Positions 18,954 to 27,072 of a stretch of DNA of 64,000 nt are shown in pieces (the first letter of the stretch is position 1; the number at the start of each line of letters is the position of its first letter). The translations under genes were made by a program, and so were the position numbers. Below the pieces are notes generated by a model. The model worked only from the letters and a program-made list of their open reading frames with translations, ran no database searches and was not told the DNA's origin. The DNA is taken from assembly GCF_054482525.1 (NCBI RefSeq), contig NZ_CM137006.1; one strand, given 5' to 3'.

Positions 18954-19071
18954 GACTGACCTCTGAAATTAAAGAGCGTGTTATTGATAATGACAGACGG
19001 TATACGGCAGTGGTTACCGTAATCCGTTGTCGTGTAAAGGTATACGGTTGCCACGGGGGACTCCGGGGCGC

Positions 19072-19956
19072 TCAGAACAGGTGATCCCACAGTGTGACCA
19101 GTAGGTGGATAATGCGGGCCCGGGCTTTACGCAGAAGCTGTAACATCCAGGCCGGAAAACTGAACCGGGCAACGGCGTCGTCAAAACTTTTCCCGATGGC
19201 GTCACCAAAAGTCTGTTGTGCGTGTTTCCGGGCCTGTTCAGAGCGGTTTTCCCCCCGGATATGTGAATAAACCGCGCTGGTTGCCTGTGGTGGCAGTGCG
19301 TGGATCATCAGTGACACCAGTGCCGGAAGATTCCAGCCGACAGGCGCTGCAACGGAGAGTACCGGAAATGATGACGGGAACAGGGTGGCCACCCGGGCTG
19401 TTACTGTCGCCAGTGAGAGTTCCTGCTGACGGGACGGGCATTTTTCTGCGTCGTTCCATTCTTCAGCAGGAAACACGCGATCGGCATGGCTGAGAACAAA
19501 CAGAAAACGCGAGGGATCTGCACCTTCATTCAGTAAAAACTGATGCATGGCAATATCAGCAGCATACGCACGTTCATCAGCCCGCAGGATCCAGATAATC
19601 AGATCCAGTTCCGGCAGTAACTGACGGTAAAGCTCCCGGTATTCCTGATCATGCTGCGGTGTTTCACCAATGCCGGGCAGATCGACCAGCGTCATTCTGC
19701 GTTCACCAATCTGCAGGGTGAGGCGATGAGCCTGGCGGGTGCAGCCGTTCAGGGGATGCGTGGCGCAGATACGGGACTGAAAAATGGCATTACACAGACT
19801 GCTTTTGCCGGTGCCGGATTTACCCATAATGCCAATCACGGGCTCGTAATGAATAACACCGTGGAGATGTTCAAGGATTTTCTGGCGAATTTCTTCAGGA
19901 AGAAACGTCAGATATGATTTCACTTGTGCGGAGAGGGAAGAATGGCTGAATGACAT
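19072..19956 (-). CDS. YeeP/YkfA/YfjP-family GTPase
   Basis: 294 aa; P-loop GIMGKSGTGKSSL and DLPG switch motif. Confidence 0.75.
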   Translation of the reverse strand: MSFSHSSLSAQVKSYLTFLPEEIRQKILEHLHGVIHYEPVIGIMGKSGTGKSSLCNAIFQSRICATHPLNGCTRQAHRLTLQIGERRMTLVDLPGIGETPQHDQEYRELYRQLLPELDLIIWILRADERAYAADIAMHQFLLNEGADPSRFLFVLSHADRVFPAEEWNDAEKCPSRQQELSLATVTARVATLFPSSFPVLSVAAPVGWNLPALVSLMIHALPPQATSAVYSHIRGENRSEQARKHAQQTFGDAIGKSFDDAVARFSFPAWMLQLLRKARARIIHLLVTLWDHLF

Positions 19957-20047
19957 ACCGGTATCCTGTTGATTTCACTGAACCGGATCACACTAATCCG
20001 GTTTATCATTCAGGTAATATGGGCGTGAAAAAATCTGGAGTGACAAA

Positions 20048-20995
20048 GTGTGGAGGGAAGAGATGACTGCACAACAGATTGATGCATTACGCGACATTGT
20101 TAATAAGGCCAGAGTTACCGCCATTTGTAAAAGTCCGGCCTGGAAATATACTCTGCGAATACTGAAGCGCAGCAGACTCGTGTACAGAGGAGAACGGTCA
20201 GAATCGTTTGATCCGGAGAAACATTTTAATCGTTATACGGTGCGTTATCTGTACCTGCTTAACATAATGGCACTTGAGCTAAAGTCAGATACACGGATTA
20301 AGGTTGAGGTAGGTCAATGGTATCGCATGACGGGTAAACGTTTATCACTTAATGTCCCGCCTTTTATGCTGATTCCGCGTAATATCCGGAGAAAAGTGGA
20401 TGGATTCAGACAATCAGAAGGCGAAGCAACAAAACAAACGGCTCAACCGTTCACGGGCAGTTTGTATGAGGTTTTGAGCAGGGATAACGATTCGGCTGAG
20501 CTGGACGCCTGGTTTGCTGAACCACCGCTGACACGACAGGAAGTGCGGGAGGGGAGGCGTGTCACAGATTTTAATCCATGGGCGCAGTCTTCGTTTATTT
20601 GCCGTTCAGCATCCCCGACGTTTGAACTTTTTTACCAGGAATATAAGCGACTGGGATTAAGTGTTTTTTTTGATCCGGAAAATAGAAAACCTTTTGAAAG
20701 TATAAAAAAACATTTCGGGGATAAACCACAGTTACTGGAGAGACTGGGGGATGTGTTGTTTTTCACGTCGCTTTATAACCAGGGATGTTTAGGGGAGTTT
20801 GTCAATGCGCTTGTGGAAAAGGAGGACATTTATCTGAAAGCGTCCCCCGGGGAAGAAAAGCTGAAAGCACACCAGAAAATGATTAACTACATTGAAGAGT
20901 TCTGCAACAAAATGACGGAAAAGTATCTGATATCCGCAGCCAGGAGACACTACCAAAAGAAGAAAATCGGCAGGAGCAGAAGTGGTGAAAGTTAA
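20048..20995 (+). CDS. hypothetical protein (315 aa)
   Basis: Intact ORF; 3' end overlaps the convergent gene 20992..21915 by 4 bp; no assignable domain. Confidence 0.45.
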   Translation: MWREEMTAQQIDALRDIVNKARVTAICKSPAWKYTLRILKRSRLVYRGERSESFDPEKHFNRYTVRYLYLLNIMALELKSDTRIKVEVGQWYRMTGKRLSLNVPPFMLIPRNIRRKVDGFRQSEGEATKQTAQPFTGSLYEVLSRDNDSAELDAWFAEPPLTRQEVREGRRVTDFNPWAQSSFICRSASPTFELFYQEYKRLGLSVFFDPENRKPFESIKKHFGDKPQLLERLGDVLFFTSLYNQGCLGEFVNALVEKEDIYLKASPGEEKLKAHQKMINYIEEFCNKMTEKYLISAARRHYQKKKIGRSRSGES

Positions 20996-21915
20996 TACAG
21001 TCTGTGGTTCTGAATCACCAGCCTGTGGTTCTGAATCAGATGTTCCAGGACAGCCTGTTGTGTTGTTTTCAGTTCTCTGGTCAGTCTGTCCAGAGTACGT
21101 TTTGCATCTGATGATATTTTAACGTTGATTTGTACCCGCTTATCTTTTTTTCCGTCGGTAAACTGTTTTCGGAATGCATTGTGCATCTTGTCGAAAAATT
21201 TTTCTTTTGCGGCAACCCCATAGTGAAGTACTTTTGGCTGCTGTAAGTATGGTGTATCTGCGGGGAATAAAATTTTTAGTAAAACTACGATAGCAATGTA
21301 TCTTTCGTTATCACTTACAGGATAAAACCAGGAAAGATACGTGTGCGGGATGCGTGCATTGATATATTTCCATGCCCATTCGAGTTGTTCTGTATTCTTT
21401 TTAAGCCATTTGGCTTCGTTTCTCTTTTCGATCTGCAGCCAGTTTTGATGCATTGTTGAGATGAAGCAATCTGATTGATTGTCAAGGATTAATGCATTAA
21501 TCCATTTGCTTATAACATCCAGTCTCATTTCATGATCTGAAGGAATTGTTGTTATGGGTATACTCCCCGCAGGAATCAGCCCCATCATGGCTGTATTGAA
21601 CCCTAATTCATTACGAACCCCAAGGAGTTTGGGATCTGTGTTAATTATAACTAACCAGAACCAGAATGCTGCAATTTCATTTTTTTTAACCCATTCAGGT
21701 ATGTGATTATCTGTCAGTTGTTTATCATTCAACAAATACTCAATTGTTTCATTTTCCCAGCTATATCCATTCACGTTATAACCATCTTCATATTGTTTCA
21801 TCTGATTACGCCTCAATCGCATTCTCTTCTGGTGATTTTCACTATCACATGGAAATCGAATATGCAAGGAAGTTAACAAAAAAACATTGCATCCGGACTT
21901 GTGTTCAAAAAGCAA
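20992..21915 (-). CDS. hypothetical protein with C-terminal ribbon-helix-helix-like segment
   Basis: C-terminus KRVQINVKISSDAKRTLDRLTRELKTTQQAVLEHLI fits RHH pattern; true start probably an internal Met (MKQYEDGYN); 3' end contains 2 x ctgtggttctgaatca. Confidence 0.4.
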   Translation of the reverse strand: MLFEHKSGCNVFLLTSLHIRFPCDSENHQKRMRLRRNQMKQYEDGYNVNGYSWENETIEYLLNDKQLTDNHIPEWVKKNEIAAFWFWLVIINTDPKLLGVRNELGFNTAMMGLIPAGSIPITTIPSDHEMRLDVISKWINALILDNQSDCFISTMHQNWLQIEKRNEAKWLKKNTEQLEWAWKYINARIPHTYLSWFYPVSDNERYIAIVVLLKILFPADTPYLQQPKVLHYGVAAKEKFFDKMHNAFRKQFTDGKKDKRVQINVKISSDAKRTLDRLTRELKTTQQAVLEHLIQNHRLVIQNHRLY

Positions 21916-22479
21916 TCACTTCAAGGCTTGATCACTCTGTGAGATGCTGAAGAACTATTCTCTAACTATTCACGATCTATTCTTGATCTATTCATAATAA
22001 ATTAAAACATGCTATCAACTACTGCTCATATCCTCCTTGGGTGTGTCGTTGTACTGTTCGACTGTTCTTGTGGTCAGATTAACAATCTGAAGAGTAAAAG
22101 CGACAGTAATCTGTCTGTTATAGTGGCGATAAAAACACTGAATGCGCATCCTGTATGTGAAATCCTGTCATGTGGAGCAGTAAGCAATGACAGGCATGCA
22201 TGTTATATGTGAAGGGGGCCGGGAGACGACATAATCAGTATGGCTGTCATTCTGGTTGTAAAACGCGATCACTTTCCGGGGGTAAAAGATGATATGGAAG
22301 CTGACAAACGGTTTGCTTCGGATTGTCTTTTCTGGGGCCTGAAATACGGGGACAGAAAAATAATTCCAGAGTAAATCTGCTCCGTTTTCAGAACAAAAAT
22401 CCCCATGCTGGCCGTGAAAAACTGAAACGAACATTCAGTCTGCATGAGTGTCTGAAGATGTTGAGAATGTCGGTATGAT

Positions 22480-22700
22480 ACTATATACACATGTTTTTAT
22501 TAAGTGTTATATACATATCTTTTTAAATAGATAATTCTACACATATTTTACTAAGTGTTTTTACTAAGCATTTCAGTAAGTGTTATACACGTATTTTCTA
22601 CTAAGTGTTTTACCAGACATACACATGTTTTCATAAACAATTCTACAAGTGTTTTCATTAAGTATTGTTATACACATTGCTTTGTCTGATACACATCCAG
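22480..22700. repeat. cluster of short imperfect direct repeats (taagtgtt core, >=5 copies; acacatgtttt x2) in AT-rich non-coding DNA
   Basis: Read directly from sequence; irregular spacing, no ORF. Confidence 0.6.
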
Positions 22701-23551
22701 TTTAGTAAACCTGTCAGTCCTGTTTTTACGTTAACTAAAATCAGCTTAATGCTACTACAAAACAATCTTTCCTGTTTAAGCAATCAATATGATATTCTAT
22801 TTTTCTGATGTTACATTTAACCTTTTATGAGTTTTCGTGTTTTTAGTCGTTAACCTGAGACAAGTGTTTTTATGTAAAACGCAAATCCGGCTGAGATAAC
22901 CTGGCGTGATTTACTGTGTGCTTACGATGATTTTGTTAAATGGTTTTATGGATGATTTTGTAGCGATAAGATTGATGAGATGATTAACTGGCCCTGGTGT
23001 TTTTTCTCAGTGCAAGGTGATTATCTTCATCATAAGGCTCTTTTCAGAAAAAGCGTGATGATTGGTTCTGGTGTTTTGATTCAGATGAGATTTACGTTAT
23101 CGATGGTTAATCGTTTTTATGGTGTGTTGAAAAGTAACGTTTTCAGGATAAGAAAATCGATTCTGATGTTGGTGGTTTTTGTTCTCGGGGCAGGGTTATC
23201 TGTAAACAGGTTTTAAACGCGCTATTCGGCTCTGTGATTGAGTTTTGTGGTTAAGCTGTAGGTTTTGGTATTGTTGTTGATTCACAGCAGCAGAAAGCGT
23301 TCTGATTGCGTTTTTGGTGTTTTGTTTGCACGTTCTGTTGATCCGTTTCCCTTCGGGCTTTGTAGTTTTTAAAAACCATTTATGCCGTTGTTGTGTGTTT
23401 TACCCTGCGTGTAGGTTTATCTTTTCTTCGTGGGGGATTCATTCTGTTTTAATCAGGAGCCATTGGCGTTGCTCAATGGCGGGATGCCGTAAAGTTTTAC
23501 CGCAGTGATTAATGATGTGAAGTCAATCCAAATCAACGGAGATCTCTCATC

Positions 23552-24283
23552 ATGAATCAACCAATACACAATGCTTACTGGTTATCCCGTTTTGACAGCC
23601 TTCTCGACAGTGCCCTAGTGCAGCACCGTGCCGTCTCGTTAATTCGGGTGGATTTACGTTTTCCTGAGTATATGCCTGCCACTATTATGGATACCGATTT
23701 AGATTCAGCAGTGATTTCTCGTTTTTTCGAATCCCTGAAAGCAAAAATTCAGGCTTACCAGCGGAAAAAACGACGTGCCAACAAGCGTGTGCGTGCAACC
23801 ACTCTGCGTTATTTCTGGTGTCGGGAGTTTGGCAAGGAAAAAGGCAGGAAACATTATCACGTGATATTACTGCTCAACAAAGATACCTGGTGCTCGCCAG
23901 GGGATTTCACCGTTCCTTCTTCGCTGGCGACGCTGATCAAGCTGGCATGGTGCAGTGCTCTGCATCTCGAGCCCTGGCAGGGTAATGGACTGGTTCATTT
24001 TTCCAGGCGGACGCCTTTCCGTAAACCGACATCATCTGATGCTCGCCCTTCTTCCGATGATACGCCTTTGTCGGGTGGATGTTCTGAAACCAGGAAGGCT
24101 TCAGACAAAAAGCCGGGTGAAGCCGCTGTTCTCTGGGTCAAGCGTGGTGATGTGGAAGCGATGCAGAAAGCCATGGAGAGAGCCTGTTATCTCGTGAAGT
24201 ATGAGACGAAGCAGCATGACGGTTCTGGGCAACGTAATTATGGTTGCAGTCGTGGGCCGGGGCGTCTACTGGATGGCAGGTGA
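23552..24283 (+). CDS. inovirus Gp2-family protein (YagK/YfjJ-like)
   Basis: 243 aa; RVDLRFPEY and HYHVILLLNKD motifs parallel the other Gp2-like paralogues. Confidence 0.6.
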   Translation: MNQPIHNAYWLSRFDSLLDSALVQHRAVSLIRVDLRFPEYMPATIMDTDLDSAVISRFFESLKAKIQAYQRKKRRANKRVRATTLRYFWCREFGKEKGRKHYHVILLLNKDTWCSPGDFTVPSSLATLIKLAWCSALHLEPWQGNGLVHFSRRTPFRKPTSSDARPSSDDTPLSGGCSETRKASDKKPGEAAVLWVKRGDVEAMQKAMERACYLVKYETKQHDGSGQRNYGCSRGPGRLLDGR

Positions 24284-24386
24284 GCCCTGTAAAACGGCAT
24301 CCGGTGCCTGAGCATACGTCACGTAATTAACTGTCTTGACCAACAAAATTATGGAGTAACCTGATGGCAGGATTCATTACATTTCT

Positions 24387-25034
<648 letters not shown>

Positions 25035-25051
25035 TATTGCCCATTCTTGCT

Positions 25052-25094
<43 letters not shown>

Positions 25095-25467
25095 TGGCTC
25101 AGCGTATGCGCCATTTGCTTACATATGGGCTTAAACCCTAAGGGGCCCCAGGCTGCATACGCTTTGCCAAATCTGTTCGCTGCTCATGATAACGAAGAAC
25201 CAGGATACAAGGTGGAAGATCCTCAACGCTCAGGGGCGCAATGTTCCCTGTGTTTCATGCCCCCATCGTTTGTTGCTGTGGTGCCAGACTTCTGAGGCAC
25301 CTCCATGTCGTTTTGCTTTTGTCAGCATCATAAATGCGTCGGGACTGGTGAATGGATACAAGCCATTTTATTATCGACGTCAGCGAACATACTCACAATG
25401 TCGGTATATTTCTGAACTGAACAGTAAGTTTTGCGTTGATTACAGTATGCGAAGGAGGTCCATTACA

Positions 25468-27072
25468 ATGAATCCCGATTATGTGCAATCCTTGCAGACA
25501 TCCCACCACTTCCCAGCTGATTTAACCTACAGATTATTTCCTAGTGAGCTTGCGTATCTCATTGACGACTTATATGAAAGTACCCAACTTCCGTTGGAGC
25601 TCATTTTTAATACTGTACTGGCAACGCTCTCACTCTCCTGTCAGTCATTGGTTGACGTTGTTCATCCTCACACCAACATGCCGGAACCCTGCTCACTTTA
25701 TCTGTTGGCAATCGCAGAGCCAGGCGCGGGAAAAACAACGATAAACAGACTGGTGATGAACCCCTGTTACGAATTTGCCGATCGACTCATTCAACAATAC
25801 GAAGAGAGAAACAAAGATTATAAGACTGAACTACAGATCTGGAATACCCGGCAGAAAGCGCTTGCTGCCAATTTAAGAAAGGTTGTTAACCGGGGGTATC
25901 CGGGGGAACAGGAAGAAGAGGCGCTGCGTAATCACGAAAGAAATAAACCGACACGTCCGGTTCGACCGAATTTTATCTATGAAGATGTTTCGCTTAAAGC
26001 GCTTGTGGAAGGGCTCAATGAACATCCTGAGGCAGGGGTTATTTCTGATGAGGCGGTCACTTTTTTCAGAAGCTATCTGAAAAATTATCCGGGCCTGTTG
26101 AATAAAGCATGGAGTGGGCAACCGTTTGATTTTGGACGGGCTGACGAGAAATACCATATCGCGCCACGTCTGACATTTTCGTTAATGTCTCAGCCGGATG
26201 TCTTTACGAATTATATAAATAAAAATGACGTACTGGCGTGGGGAAGCGGATTTCTTTCCCGGTTTCTGTTCAGTCAGGTTGTAAGTTCTTCCTGGATACG
26301 TGATTATACGAGAGGTGAGTTCAGAACAATATCAACCCTGGAGAACTTTCATAAAAAGATTAACGGATTCCTGTTAAACCACAACATTAATTTCCCCGGC
26401 ATGAGCACCGAAAGGAAGACATTAAAACTTGCGAAGAAAGCGTTGGGGGAGTGGCAGGAAAACCAGATTAAGATTGAAAGAAAAGCGCTTGCAGGCGGGG
26501 AGTGGGAACACATCAGAGATATTGTTCTGAAAGCAGGTTCTAATATACTGAGGATAGCTGGAATATTCACCTGCTATTGCTATAAAGATGCTGAGGAAAT
26601 TGAATCAATTGCGCTTTTTAAAGCTATGCATCTCATGGACTGGTATCTGGAGGAGGCGAGCACAATATTTTATCCCATGTCTGCACGATGCCAGTTTGAA
26701 CAGGATGCCTGTGAACTGTATGCATGGATTATGACCCGAATAAGGCAGAATAATTGGCGTGCTATCAGGAAAACAGACATTGAAAGATATGGTCCCAATC
26801 GACTGAGAAGAGCAGAAAAACTTACACCTGTACTCAATCAGTTAATCTGTCAGGGGTATTTATGTATCATCAGAATGCGATCGCATCAGGCACTTTATGT
26901 TTCTGTTTATTGTAACAATGGTTACCTCCTTCCTTTAGGCGCAATGTATTACGAACAGTTTGATATTGTTCTACCCGAGAATATTCATAAAGCGAAAGCA
27001 TATCACGTTAATATTCCACCGGAATTAATTCCGTCATTTGCGTCACCTTTTTCAGAGTATAGCTTATTTTGA
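25468..27072 (+). CDS. DUF3987-type P-loop protein (YfjI-like, P4 alpha C-terminal-like)
   Basis: Start moved from 25186 to ATG at 25468, preceded by AGGAGG at 25453-25458; Walker A AEPGAGKTT; family from memory. Confidence 0.5.
   Translation: MNPDYVQSLQTSHHFPADLTYRLFPSELAYLIDDLYESTQLPLELIFNTVLATLSLSCQSLVDVVHPHTNMPEPCSLYLLAIAEPGAGKTTINRLVMNPCYEFADRLIQQYEERNKDYKTELQIWNTRQKALAANLRKVVNRGYPGEQEEEALRNHERNKPTRPVRPNFIYEDVSLKALVEGLNEHPEAGVISDEAVTFFRSYLKNYPGLLNKAWSGQPFDFGRADEKYHIAPRLTFSLMSQPDVFTNYINKNDVLAWGSGFLSRFLFSQVVSSSWIRDYTRGEFRTISTLENFHKKINGFLLNHNINFPGMSTERKTLKLAKKALGEWQENQIKIERKALAGGEWEHIRDIVLKAGSNILRIAGIFTCYCYKDAEEIESIALFKAMHLMDWYLEEASTIFYPMSARCQFEQDACELYAWIMTRIRQNNWRAIRKTDIERYGPNRLRRAEKLTPVLNQLICQGYLCIIRMRSHQALYVSVYCNNGYLLPLGAMYYEQFDIVLPENIHKAKAYHVNIPPELIPSFASPFSEYSLF

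Follow-up and report, generated by a model that had tools for sequence, protein, structure and literature searches.

The 64,000-nucleotide stretch of contig NZ_CM137006.1 (NCBI RefSeq assembly GCF_054482525.1) analyzed here, called the window throughout, belongs to a CP4-57-like island of Escherichia coli, and this work concerns two convergent genes in it, A and B, which meet tail to tail beside a GTPase gene (Table 1). The locus occurs in identical form in NZ_CP191552.1. An identical stretch is carried by strain CDE6306, where the RefSeq gene order, from right to left, is YfjI family, inovirus Gp2 family, two hypothetical proteins, GTPase, DUF905, DUF932, antirestriction, RadC, DUF987, CbeA, and CbtA. 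An earlier sequence-only reading had delimited the pair as the open reading frames (ORFs) 20048..20995 (+) and 20992..21915 (-). These are maximal ORFs, longer than the real genes, and the starts adopted here were set by the RefSeq annotation of the identical locus together with the N termini of homologues. The same reading correctly described two ORFs overlapping by 4 base pairs (bp) at their ends and adjoining the island GTPase gene. The results presented below show that the pair is real and is not composed of ordinary housekeeping genes, and that the overlap and a direct repeat close to it carry less weight than first claimed.

Table 1. Coordinates of the genes, domains, and noncoding features of the A/B locus in the window
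Feature	Coordinates	Strand	Description
Gene A	20063-20995	+	310 residues; start ATG 20063; product basic (isoelectric point [pI], 9.6), all-helical, of an orphan family
Gene B	20992-21801	-	269 residues; start ATG 21801; tryptophan-rich N-terminal domain of no known fold and C-terminal ribbon-helix-helix (RHH)-like domain
Predicted RHH segment of B	21028-21141	-	Residues 221-258; RVQINVKIS, helix 231-244, helix 248-258
Shared TTAA	20992-20995		Stop codons of the two genes, interlocked; 4 bases common to both ORFs
Tandem duplication	20998-21038		Period 21 bp; adds 7 residues (QNHRLVI) at the B C terminus
Phased repeat array	21955-21993	-	Four CTATTC repeats (GAATAG on the B strand), exact 11-bp period; candidate operator for the RHH domain of B
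Box TTGATAGCATGTTTT	22004-22018	-	Adjoins the repeat array upstream; possibly the -35 region of the B promoter
Iteron-like cluster	22485-22680 (and 22860-22870)		TACACAT and TAAGTGTT-type units, many copies; AT-rich spacer (~30% GC) between B and the Gp2-like gene
YfjP-type GTPase gene	19072-19956	-	Adjoins the pair
Inverted repeat AACCGGAT-N7-ATCCGGTT	19981-20003		GTPase-A intergenic region
Conserved noncoding box	20006-20042		37 bp; core AGGTAATATGGGCGTGA at 20012-20028; -10-like TAATAT at 20015-20020
Replaceable, fast-evolving cassette	20042-22350		A, B, and the upstream region of B; delimited by blastn against L002, L003, L023, and L024

Related loci are designated here by L numbers. Against L002, an island 83 to 85% identical to the window, the ratio of nonsynonymous to synonymous substitution rates (dN/dS) was 0.47 for A and 0.50 for B, and the same comparison gave 0.10 to 0.19 for the GTPase gene and 0.25 to 0.45 for the Gp2-like gene. 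A and B are protein-coding genes that evolve much faster than their neighbors. The idea that either ORF is noncoding was ruled out because both dN/dS values are about 0.5 and both proteins have deep families of homologues. Neither protein matched a housekeeping or defense family, in agreement with the earlier description of both as uncharacterized.

The genomic context was compared in 14 elements, namely those of ten distant A homologues (22 to 29% identical to the window A) and four E. coli alleles. In all 14, A on the plus strand is followed by a convergent B homologue, and this arrangement, kept across very divergent elements, is not accidental. Past B there is always a noncoding spacer of 0.4 to 1.75 kb, and B is divergent across it from the genes for AlpA and/or the YagK/YfjJ protein (a Gp2-like HUH Rep) in every lineage with flanking sequence. 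The opposite side of A usually holds a divergent GTPase-WYL-...-DUF932-antirestriction-RadC-CbeA/CbtA operon; L019 has no GTPase gene, and in L017 it is located elsewhere. Since the position of A and B is the same across the 14 elements, the pair belongs to the island backbone, at the junction of two arms. CP4-57-like islands occur in about a third of complete E. coli genomes; 1,872 of 5,426 matched part of the locus, and in 499 this A/B allele or a close relative of it covers at least 80% of a 2.2-kb query that includes short flanks. In L013 and L014 (1-7341), which represent one distant lineage, the pair lies directly after conjugative-transfer genes, which encode a P-loop_TraG ATPase and four proteins without assigned function and take the place of the GTPase operon. 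This adjacency to transfer (type IV secretion) genes suggests that the module also occurs in elements resembling integrative and conjugative elements.

Within E. coli, the backbone is conserved up to position 20041 and again from approximately 22353, with a replaceable slot in between. In L023, this slot contains a lone B-family protein of 345 residues (hhalign probability, 99.3%), encoded co-directionally with the GTPase, and in L024 it contains a lone, distant A-family protein of 407 residues (hhalign probability, 95.8%). A B-like gene also stands alone at the head of the operon in L022 (Klebsiella) and L021 (E. coli). Compared with this B-only arrangement, A is encoded on the other strand and intervenes between B and the GTPase operon. 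A replaceable segment between conserved flanks, with alternative occupants and fast evolution (dN/dS of about 0.5), could also be a variable hotspot in which the pair represents antiphage defense or counterdefense cargo. Elements of this class have been described in a recent preprint as a vehicle for defense islands; that work calls the class uncharacterized and lists an integrase, an excisionase, an HUH endonuclease, cargo, and a RadC/ArdB/CbtA "moron" module, and the A and B genes go unmentioned (PMC12458937). However, what fills the slot in other islands is itself a distant homologue of A or of B, and the same backbone position is kept at about 25% identity, which is unlike the behavior of cargo. 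Moreover, neither protein matches any PADLOC-DB v2 family at E <= 1, no catalytic motif is conserved in A, and tblastn searches found no relatives in phage genomes. Even counting in its favor that the corresponding CP4-57 region of K-12 carries rnlAB, we regard the defense explanation as quite improbable.

The family of protein A is small, with about 69 close clusters in Escherichia. An exhaustive hidden Markov model search of 1.84 billion representatives recovered 49 A clusters, 17 of them full length at 22 to 29% identity, and a scan of genome contigs with a narrow alignment found a single locus, in Hafnia alvei. The tblastn matches in plasmids comprised two to four records, apparently islands or misassigned chromosomes. 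Nothing matched when A and 10 distant homologues were compared with Pfam, NCBIfam, PADLOC, and PHROGs. The AlphaFold model of A, built from a 23-sequence alignment, is almost all-helical (predicted local distance difference test score [pLDDT], 87.8; predicted template modeling score, 0.85), and Foldseek against AFDB50 retrieved its own family alone, with uncharacterized E. coli and Salmonella members. Sequence searches of the PDB with profiles of A and of B yielded chance matches alone. A has, in short, a confidently modeled fold with no PDB or AFDB relatives outside its own family, and it showed no relaxase, Rep, or partition fold. Its basic character is kept in 18 of 18 lineages (pI, 9.1 to 9.85), and a basic C-terminal tail is conserved; no Cys/His/Asp catalytic constellation is invariant among the homologues. 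Within E. coli the protein is a mosaic, with residues 1 to 150 being 72 to 99% identical and residues 151 to 310 being 45 to 99% identical. The possibility that A and B are homologous to each other was rejected (hhalign probability, 0.4%). Our literature search found no paper naming the RefSeq accessions of A or B and nothing relevant on YfjP/YeeP/YkfA or on yfjJ.

The B family is similarly small. The C-terminal ~50 residues of B match weakly, and always at the same position, RepC_IncLM, PRK13702 (RepA2/CopB), RepB-RCR_reg (PF10723), RHH_1, and a PHROG family of Arc-like repressors. For the window B, the Pfam E values were 0.08 to 0.3, and the NCBIfam scores were 15.9 to 18.2 bits, with cutoffs of 80 to 87. 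Below threshold, the PRK13702 match recurs in 8 of 10 divergent B homologues (best E = 8.5e-5, 22.5 bits) and the RHH_1 match in 7 of 14, again at the C terminus, and RefSeq names one B allele "replication regulatory RepB family protein." In the structural model of B, an extended segment with alternating hydrophobic residues (VQINVKIS) precedes the two predicted helices. Since all of these matches fall below family threshold, we call the C terminus of B RHH-like, of the CopB/Arc kind, an assignment with good but not formal support. The RHH-like tail proposed in the sequence-only reading is supported by the recurrent position of these many independent, subthreshold matches and by the helix-helix topology of the model. 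The protein is modular within E. coli, and its N-terminal domain is 36 to 42% identical where the RHH region is 79% identical. This N-terminal domain and the C-terminal half of A covary.

RHH domains are common among antitoxins, and the island already has a CbtA/CbeA system, which together would be compatible with a toxin-antitoxin or addiction module in which B is the antitoxin. Nevertheless, the two genes are convergent and do not form an operon, their products are large, the RHH domain sits at the C terminus, A-like and B-like genes are each found alone, and no toxin family was matched. We therefore consider an addiction module extremely improbable.

The direct repeat emphasized in the sequence-only reading is an in-frame, 7-codon tandem duplication, with 20-nucleotide units at 20998-21017 and 21019-21038 that are 95% identical. 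The two 16-bp copies described earlier do exist; the first was correctly placed at 21002-21017, and the second is at 21023-21038, not at 21024-21039. The diverged B alleles P0072, P0075, P0076, and P0077 end in ...GRLD, without the duplication. Being restricted to the B allele group of the window, the duplication is the product of recent slippage rather than a designed element, and it was ruled out as a functional element. Variants P0071, P0074, and P0079 of B have an extra 6-bp (FW) duplication or frameshifts that scramble the C terminus, and gene B thus appears slippage-prone and sometimes decaying.

RHH dimers typically bind DNA at short direct repeats set one helical turn apart. An array of this type lies 154 to 192 nucleotides upstream of the B start codon, directly after the box TTGATAGCATGTTTT, as four GAATAG units whose plus-strand CTATTC complements start at 21955, 21966, 21977, and 21988. 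With two mismatches allowed, the array was matched in 0 of 100 shuffles. Phased GAATAG-type units are present upstream of all four B alleles with the strand RVQINVKIS, namely those of the window, L002 (six degenerate units, spacings of 10 to 12 bp), L025 (GAATAG and GAATAT, 11 bp apart), and L026 (two GAATAG units, 11 bp apart), and the N-terminal domains of these four alleles are 36 to 69% identical. In lineages with other RHH strands, no phased GAATAG array was found upstream of B, L017 and L020 having a single copy each; L004, L013, and L019 have ATAGTT/AACTAT pairs, related to GAATAG, in the B upstream region. The array thus co-occurs with one RHH strand type. Given the usual binding of RHH dimers to repeats phased by the helical turn, we propose that B may bind the array and regulate its own expression there. 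The box TTGATAGCATGTTTT could possibly represent the -35 region of the B promoter, and a related box, GCATGT(A/T)AAT, is found in other lineages.

Next to the array, the noncoding segment 21995-22360 is ~98 to 99% identical between the window and L002, whereas the flanking genes are 71 to 85% identical. Its minus strand contains a 4-codon mini-ORF (AAGGAGGATATGAGCAGTAGTTGA) preceded by a strong Shine-Dalgarno sequence, as well as two unannotated ORFs, one of 67 and one of 88 residues. An Rfam scan over 19000-25500 gave nothing above threshold.

Farther into the spacer, the iteron-like cluster is a candidate origin or origin of transfer (oriT) for the HUH Rep protein. RHH partners are known for relaxases and rolling-circle Rep proteins. 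The pair could accordingly comprise accessory factors for replication or mobilization, with B as an RHH accessory protein for the Gp2-like HUH endonuclease at the AT-rich spacer and A as a further DNA-handling partner. The cluster itself, the constant linkage of A/B across the spacer to a YagK/YfjJ (Gp2-like, REP_ORF2-G2P) gene, the resemblance of B to profiles of plasmid replication regulators (PF10723, PRK13702, and RepC_IncLM are the closest), and the position of the pair beside type IV secretion genes in L013 and L014 all point in this direction. On the other hand, the iteron-like cluster is kept in islands whose B genes are of different types and in L024, which has no B, and it is therefore unlikely to be B specific; the spacer iterons were rejected as the target of B for this reason. 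Furthermore, the GAATAG repeats that track the B type adjoin B itself, 1.5 kb from the Rep gene, and searches turned up no relaxase, Rep, or partition fold for A. We consider this explanation unlikely.

The shared TTAA at the A/B junction had suggested antisense or terminator-coupled regulation. Across elements, the spacing between A and B was -26, -11, -4 (six alleles), +15, +21, +63, +70, +81, and +121 bp. A 4-bp TTAA or CTAA overlap is also present in L002, L003, L004, L025, and L026, and the overlap is 26 bp in L018 and 11 bp in L019. Hairpins occur in some of the gaps, for example in L009 (12-bp stem, z = -4.1), where they could serve as bidirectional terminators. The window junction has no terminator-like structure (fold z = -1.4 and -0.5), and a terminator there was rejected. 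With the genes overlapping and no such structure between them, each transcript must terminate within the opposite gene. Where A is absent, B reads straight through into the GTPase operon, and A is therefore antisense within what would otherwise be a single transcription unit. These observations would suit a coupling of A and B by convergent transcription through their 3' ends, via antisense RNA or polymerase collision. Yet the spacing is not conserved, and hairpins such as that of L009 would insulate the genes from each other. Antisense or collision coupling thus cannot be the conserved mechanism, nor is the 4-bp overlap a conserved feature; the window allele may still experience convergent read-through, but as the explanation of the pair we hold this coupling to be rather improbable.

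On the other side of the pair, the GTPase-A intergenic region contains a 37-bp box located 40 to 48 nucleotides before the A start and kept in 9 lineages whose proteins are ~25% identical (consensus, AGGTAATATrGsCGTGA). The inverted repeat ends 11 to 13 nucleotides before the box, and its position is constant while its arm sequences differ among lineages. Downstream of this hairpin, on the GTPase-sense strand, 7 of 8 lineages have a U-rich run and the ribosome-binding site of the GTPase gene, the exception being the window type. The hairpin is similar to a terminator or attenuator in a leader, or to a stem that stabilizes the 5' end. The box and/or hairpin were compared across the window, L004, L007, L009, L013, L015, L019, L022, and L023. 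Since L022 and L023, relatives that lack A, have both as well, they form a backbone control region that is not specific to A. A short upstream ORF (MGVKKSGVTKCGGKR; 20019-20066) has its start within the conserved box and ends in a TGA that overlaps the ATG of A (ATGA). A similar ORF exists in L015, one in another frame in L007, and one in frame with A in L013.

Some differences among the islands concern neighboring genes. The gene for a WYL-domain regulator is missing from the window (18954-19071) and from the identical L001, and it is found between the genes for the GTPase and a 225-residue hypothetical protein in L002 and L003 (6290-6970), L023, L024, and the majority of the distant relatives. 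The DUF932 gene is intact in the window and interrupted by ISCro1 (IS66 family) in L001. An IS110-family transposase remnant occupies 24377-25135, between the Gp2-like and YfjI-family genes, and is a frameshifted pseudogene in the annotation of L001.

Taken together, the reading that we favor, with a probability of roughly 40%, is that A and B constitute a backbone regulatory module of CP4-57-like islands, in which B is an RHH transcription factor with a diversifying second domain that autoregulates at the GAATAG array and A is its basic partner. Under this proposal, the pair would be part of the backbone of Enterobacterales islands, not cargo, and would sit where two divergent arms meet, the leftward one comprising the GTPase/antirestriction/RadC/CbeA-CbtA operon and the rightward one AlpA, the Gp2-like HUH Rep, and YfjI. 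The conserved C-terminal RHH dimer of B would bind the phased GAATAG repeats in its own upstream region, which would provide autoregulation and probably also control of leftward transcription. The tryptophan-rich, rapidly diversifying N-terminal domain may be a sensor or a protein interaction module, and A, basic and all-helical and transcribed toward B, may be a second nucleic acid-binding factor or a modulator of B. What the data show is that both genes are coding, that their pairing and orientation are conserved, that B has RHH-like sequence and topology, and that the array co-occurs with one RHH strand type; DNA binding by B, its autoregulation, and any role for A are what we infer.

It is important to consider that several results weigh against this proposal. 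No RHH profile reaches family threshold (Pfam E, 0.08 to 0.3; NCBIfam, 13 to 22 bits, compared with 80 to 87), and the monomer model of B has a moderate pLDDT of 70.5 and no strand assigned by DSSP. All of the GAATAG-sharing alleles, four in number, come from E. coli, and shared descent could therefore explain part of the co-occurrence. The enrichment of ATAGT/ACTAT across lineages is weak (29 observed, compared with 18 expected), and the search for a consensus sigma-70 promoter of B was negative. As A-like and B-like genes are each found alone, they are not an obligate pair, and none of the results points to what A does.

The closest likenesses of B are to known repressors. The best-scoring profiles for its C-terminal ~50 residues are CopB (RepA2) of IncFII, RepB-RCR_reg (PF10723), and RepC of IncL/M, which are small DNA-binding repressors of replication genes. 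The matches of B nevertheless fall far below the cutoffs, and B is three times longer, with an N-terminal domain of ~215 residues of no known fold. In IncFII, CopB is an ~85-residue repressor encoded upstream of repA and co-transcribed with it. B, in contrast, has no IncFII-type repA/copA context nearby; its neighbors are island backbone genes, and it heads or faces the island operon. With the Arc/Mnt/CopG group (RHH_1, PF01402; PHROG 582), B would share a predicted strand-helix-helix segment with an alternating hydrophobic strand, and its candidate operator is likewise built of short direct repeats spaced by one helical turn. These proteins are stand-alone units of ~50 residues, whereas the putative RHH of B is the C terminus of a large protein, with subthreshold matches.

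In its position, B can be compared with the Stl-type master repressors of Staphylococcus aureus pathogenicity islands (SaPIs) and phage-inducible chromosomal islands. Stl repressors are helix-turn-helix proteins that are de-repressed by a helper-phage protein. By analogy, B is also the first gene of one arm, divergent from the AlpA/Rep arm, and seems to combine two parts, a DNA-binding module that is conserved and a second domain that diversifies rapidly. However, B is RHH-like and has no sequence or fold similarity to Stl, de-repression of B by a helper is entirely hypothetical, and SaPIs have no counterpart of A. The pR/pL promoters of coliphage 186 and prgQ/prgX of pCF10 offer another analogy, as they also involve two facing regulatory genes in which mutual transcription interference is possible. 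There, it is the promoters that point toward each other, across a short 5' overlap, whereas here whole genes lie tail to tail, with hairpins between them in several A/B lineages.

A more far-reaching version of the regulatory module that we favor would make B the master switch of a widespread class of Enterobacterales islands that frequently deliver defense cargo. The conserved RHH domain would hold the island promoters at phased GAATAG-type operators, and an inducer particular to each lineage, for example a protein of a helper phage or plasmid, would be sensed by the fast-diversifying N-terminal domain. A, a basic protein with an orphan fold that is encoded antisense to the read-through path from B to the GTPase gene, would act as a counter-regulator, the two together forming a novel type of immunity or induction cassette. 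We think this version doubtful.

CP4-57-like islands are very common in E. coli and poorly understood, and nothing that we found explains how they are regulated. Within them, the value of the locus described here lies in an orphan gene pair, an RHH-like domain with a candidate operator, a strongly conserved control box, and the orphan fold predicted for A. A conserved orphan pair at the junction of the two arms, in which B has a predicted DNA-binding domain and a precisely located candidate operator, would offer a testable entry point into the regulation of these islands.

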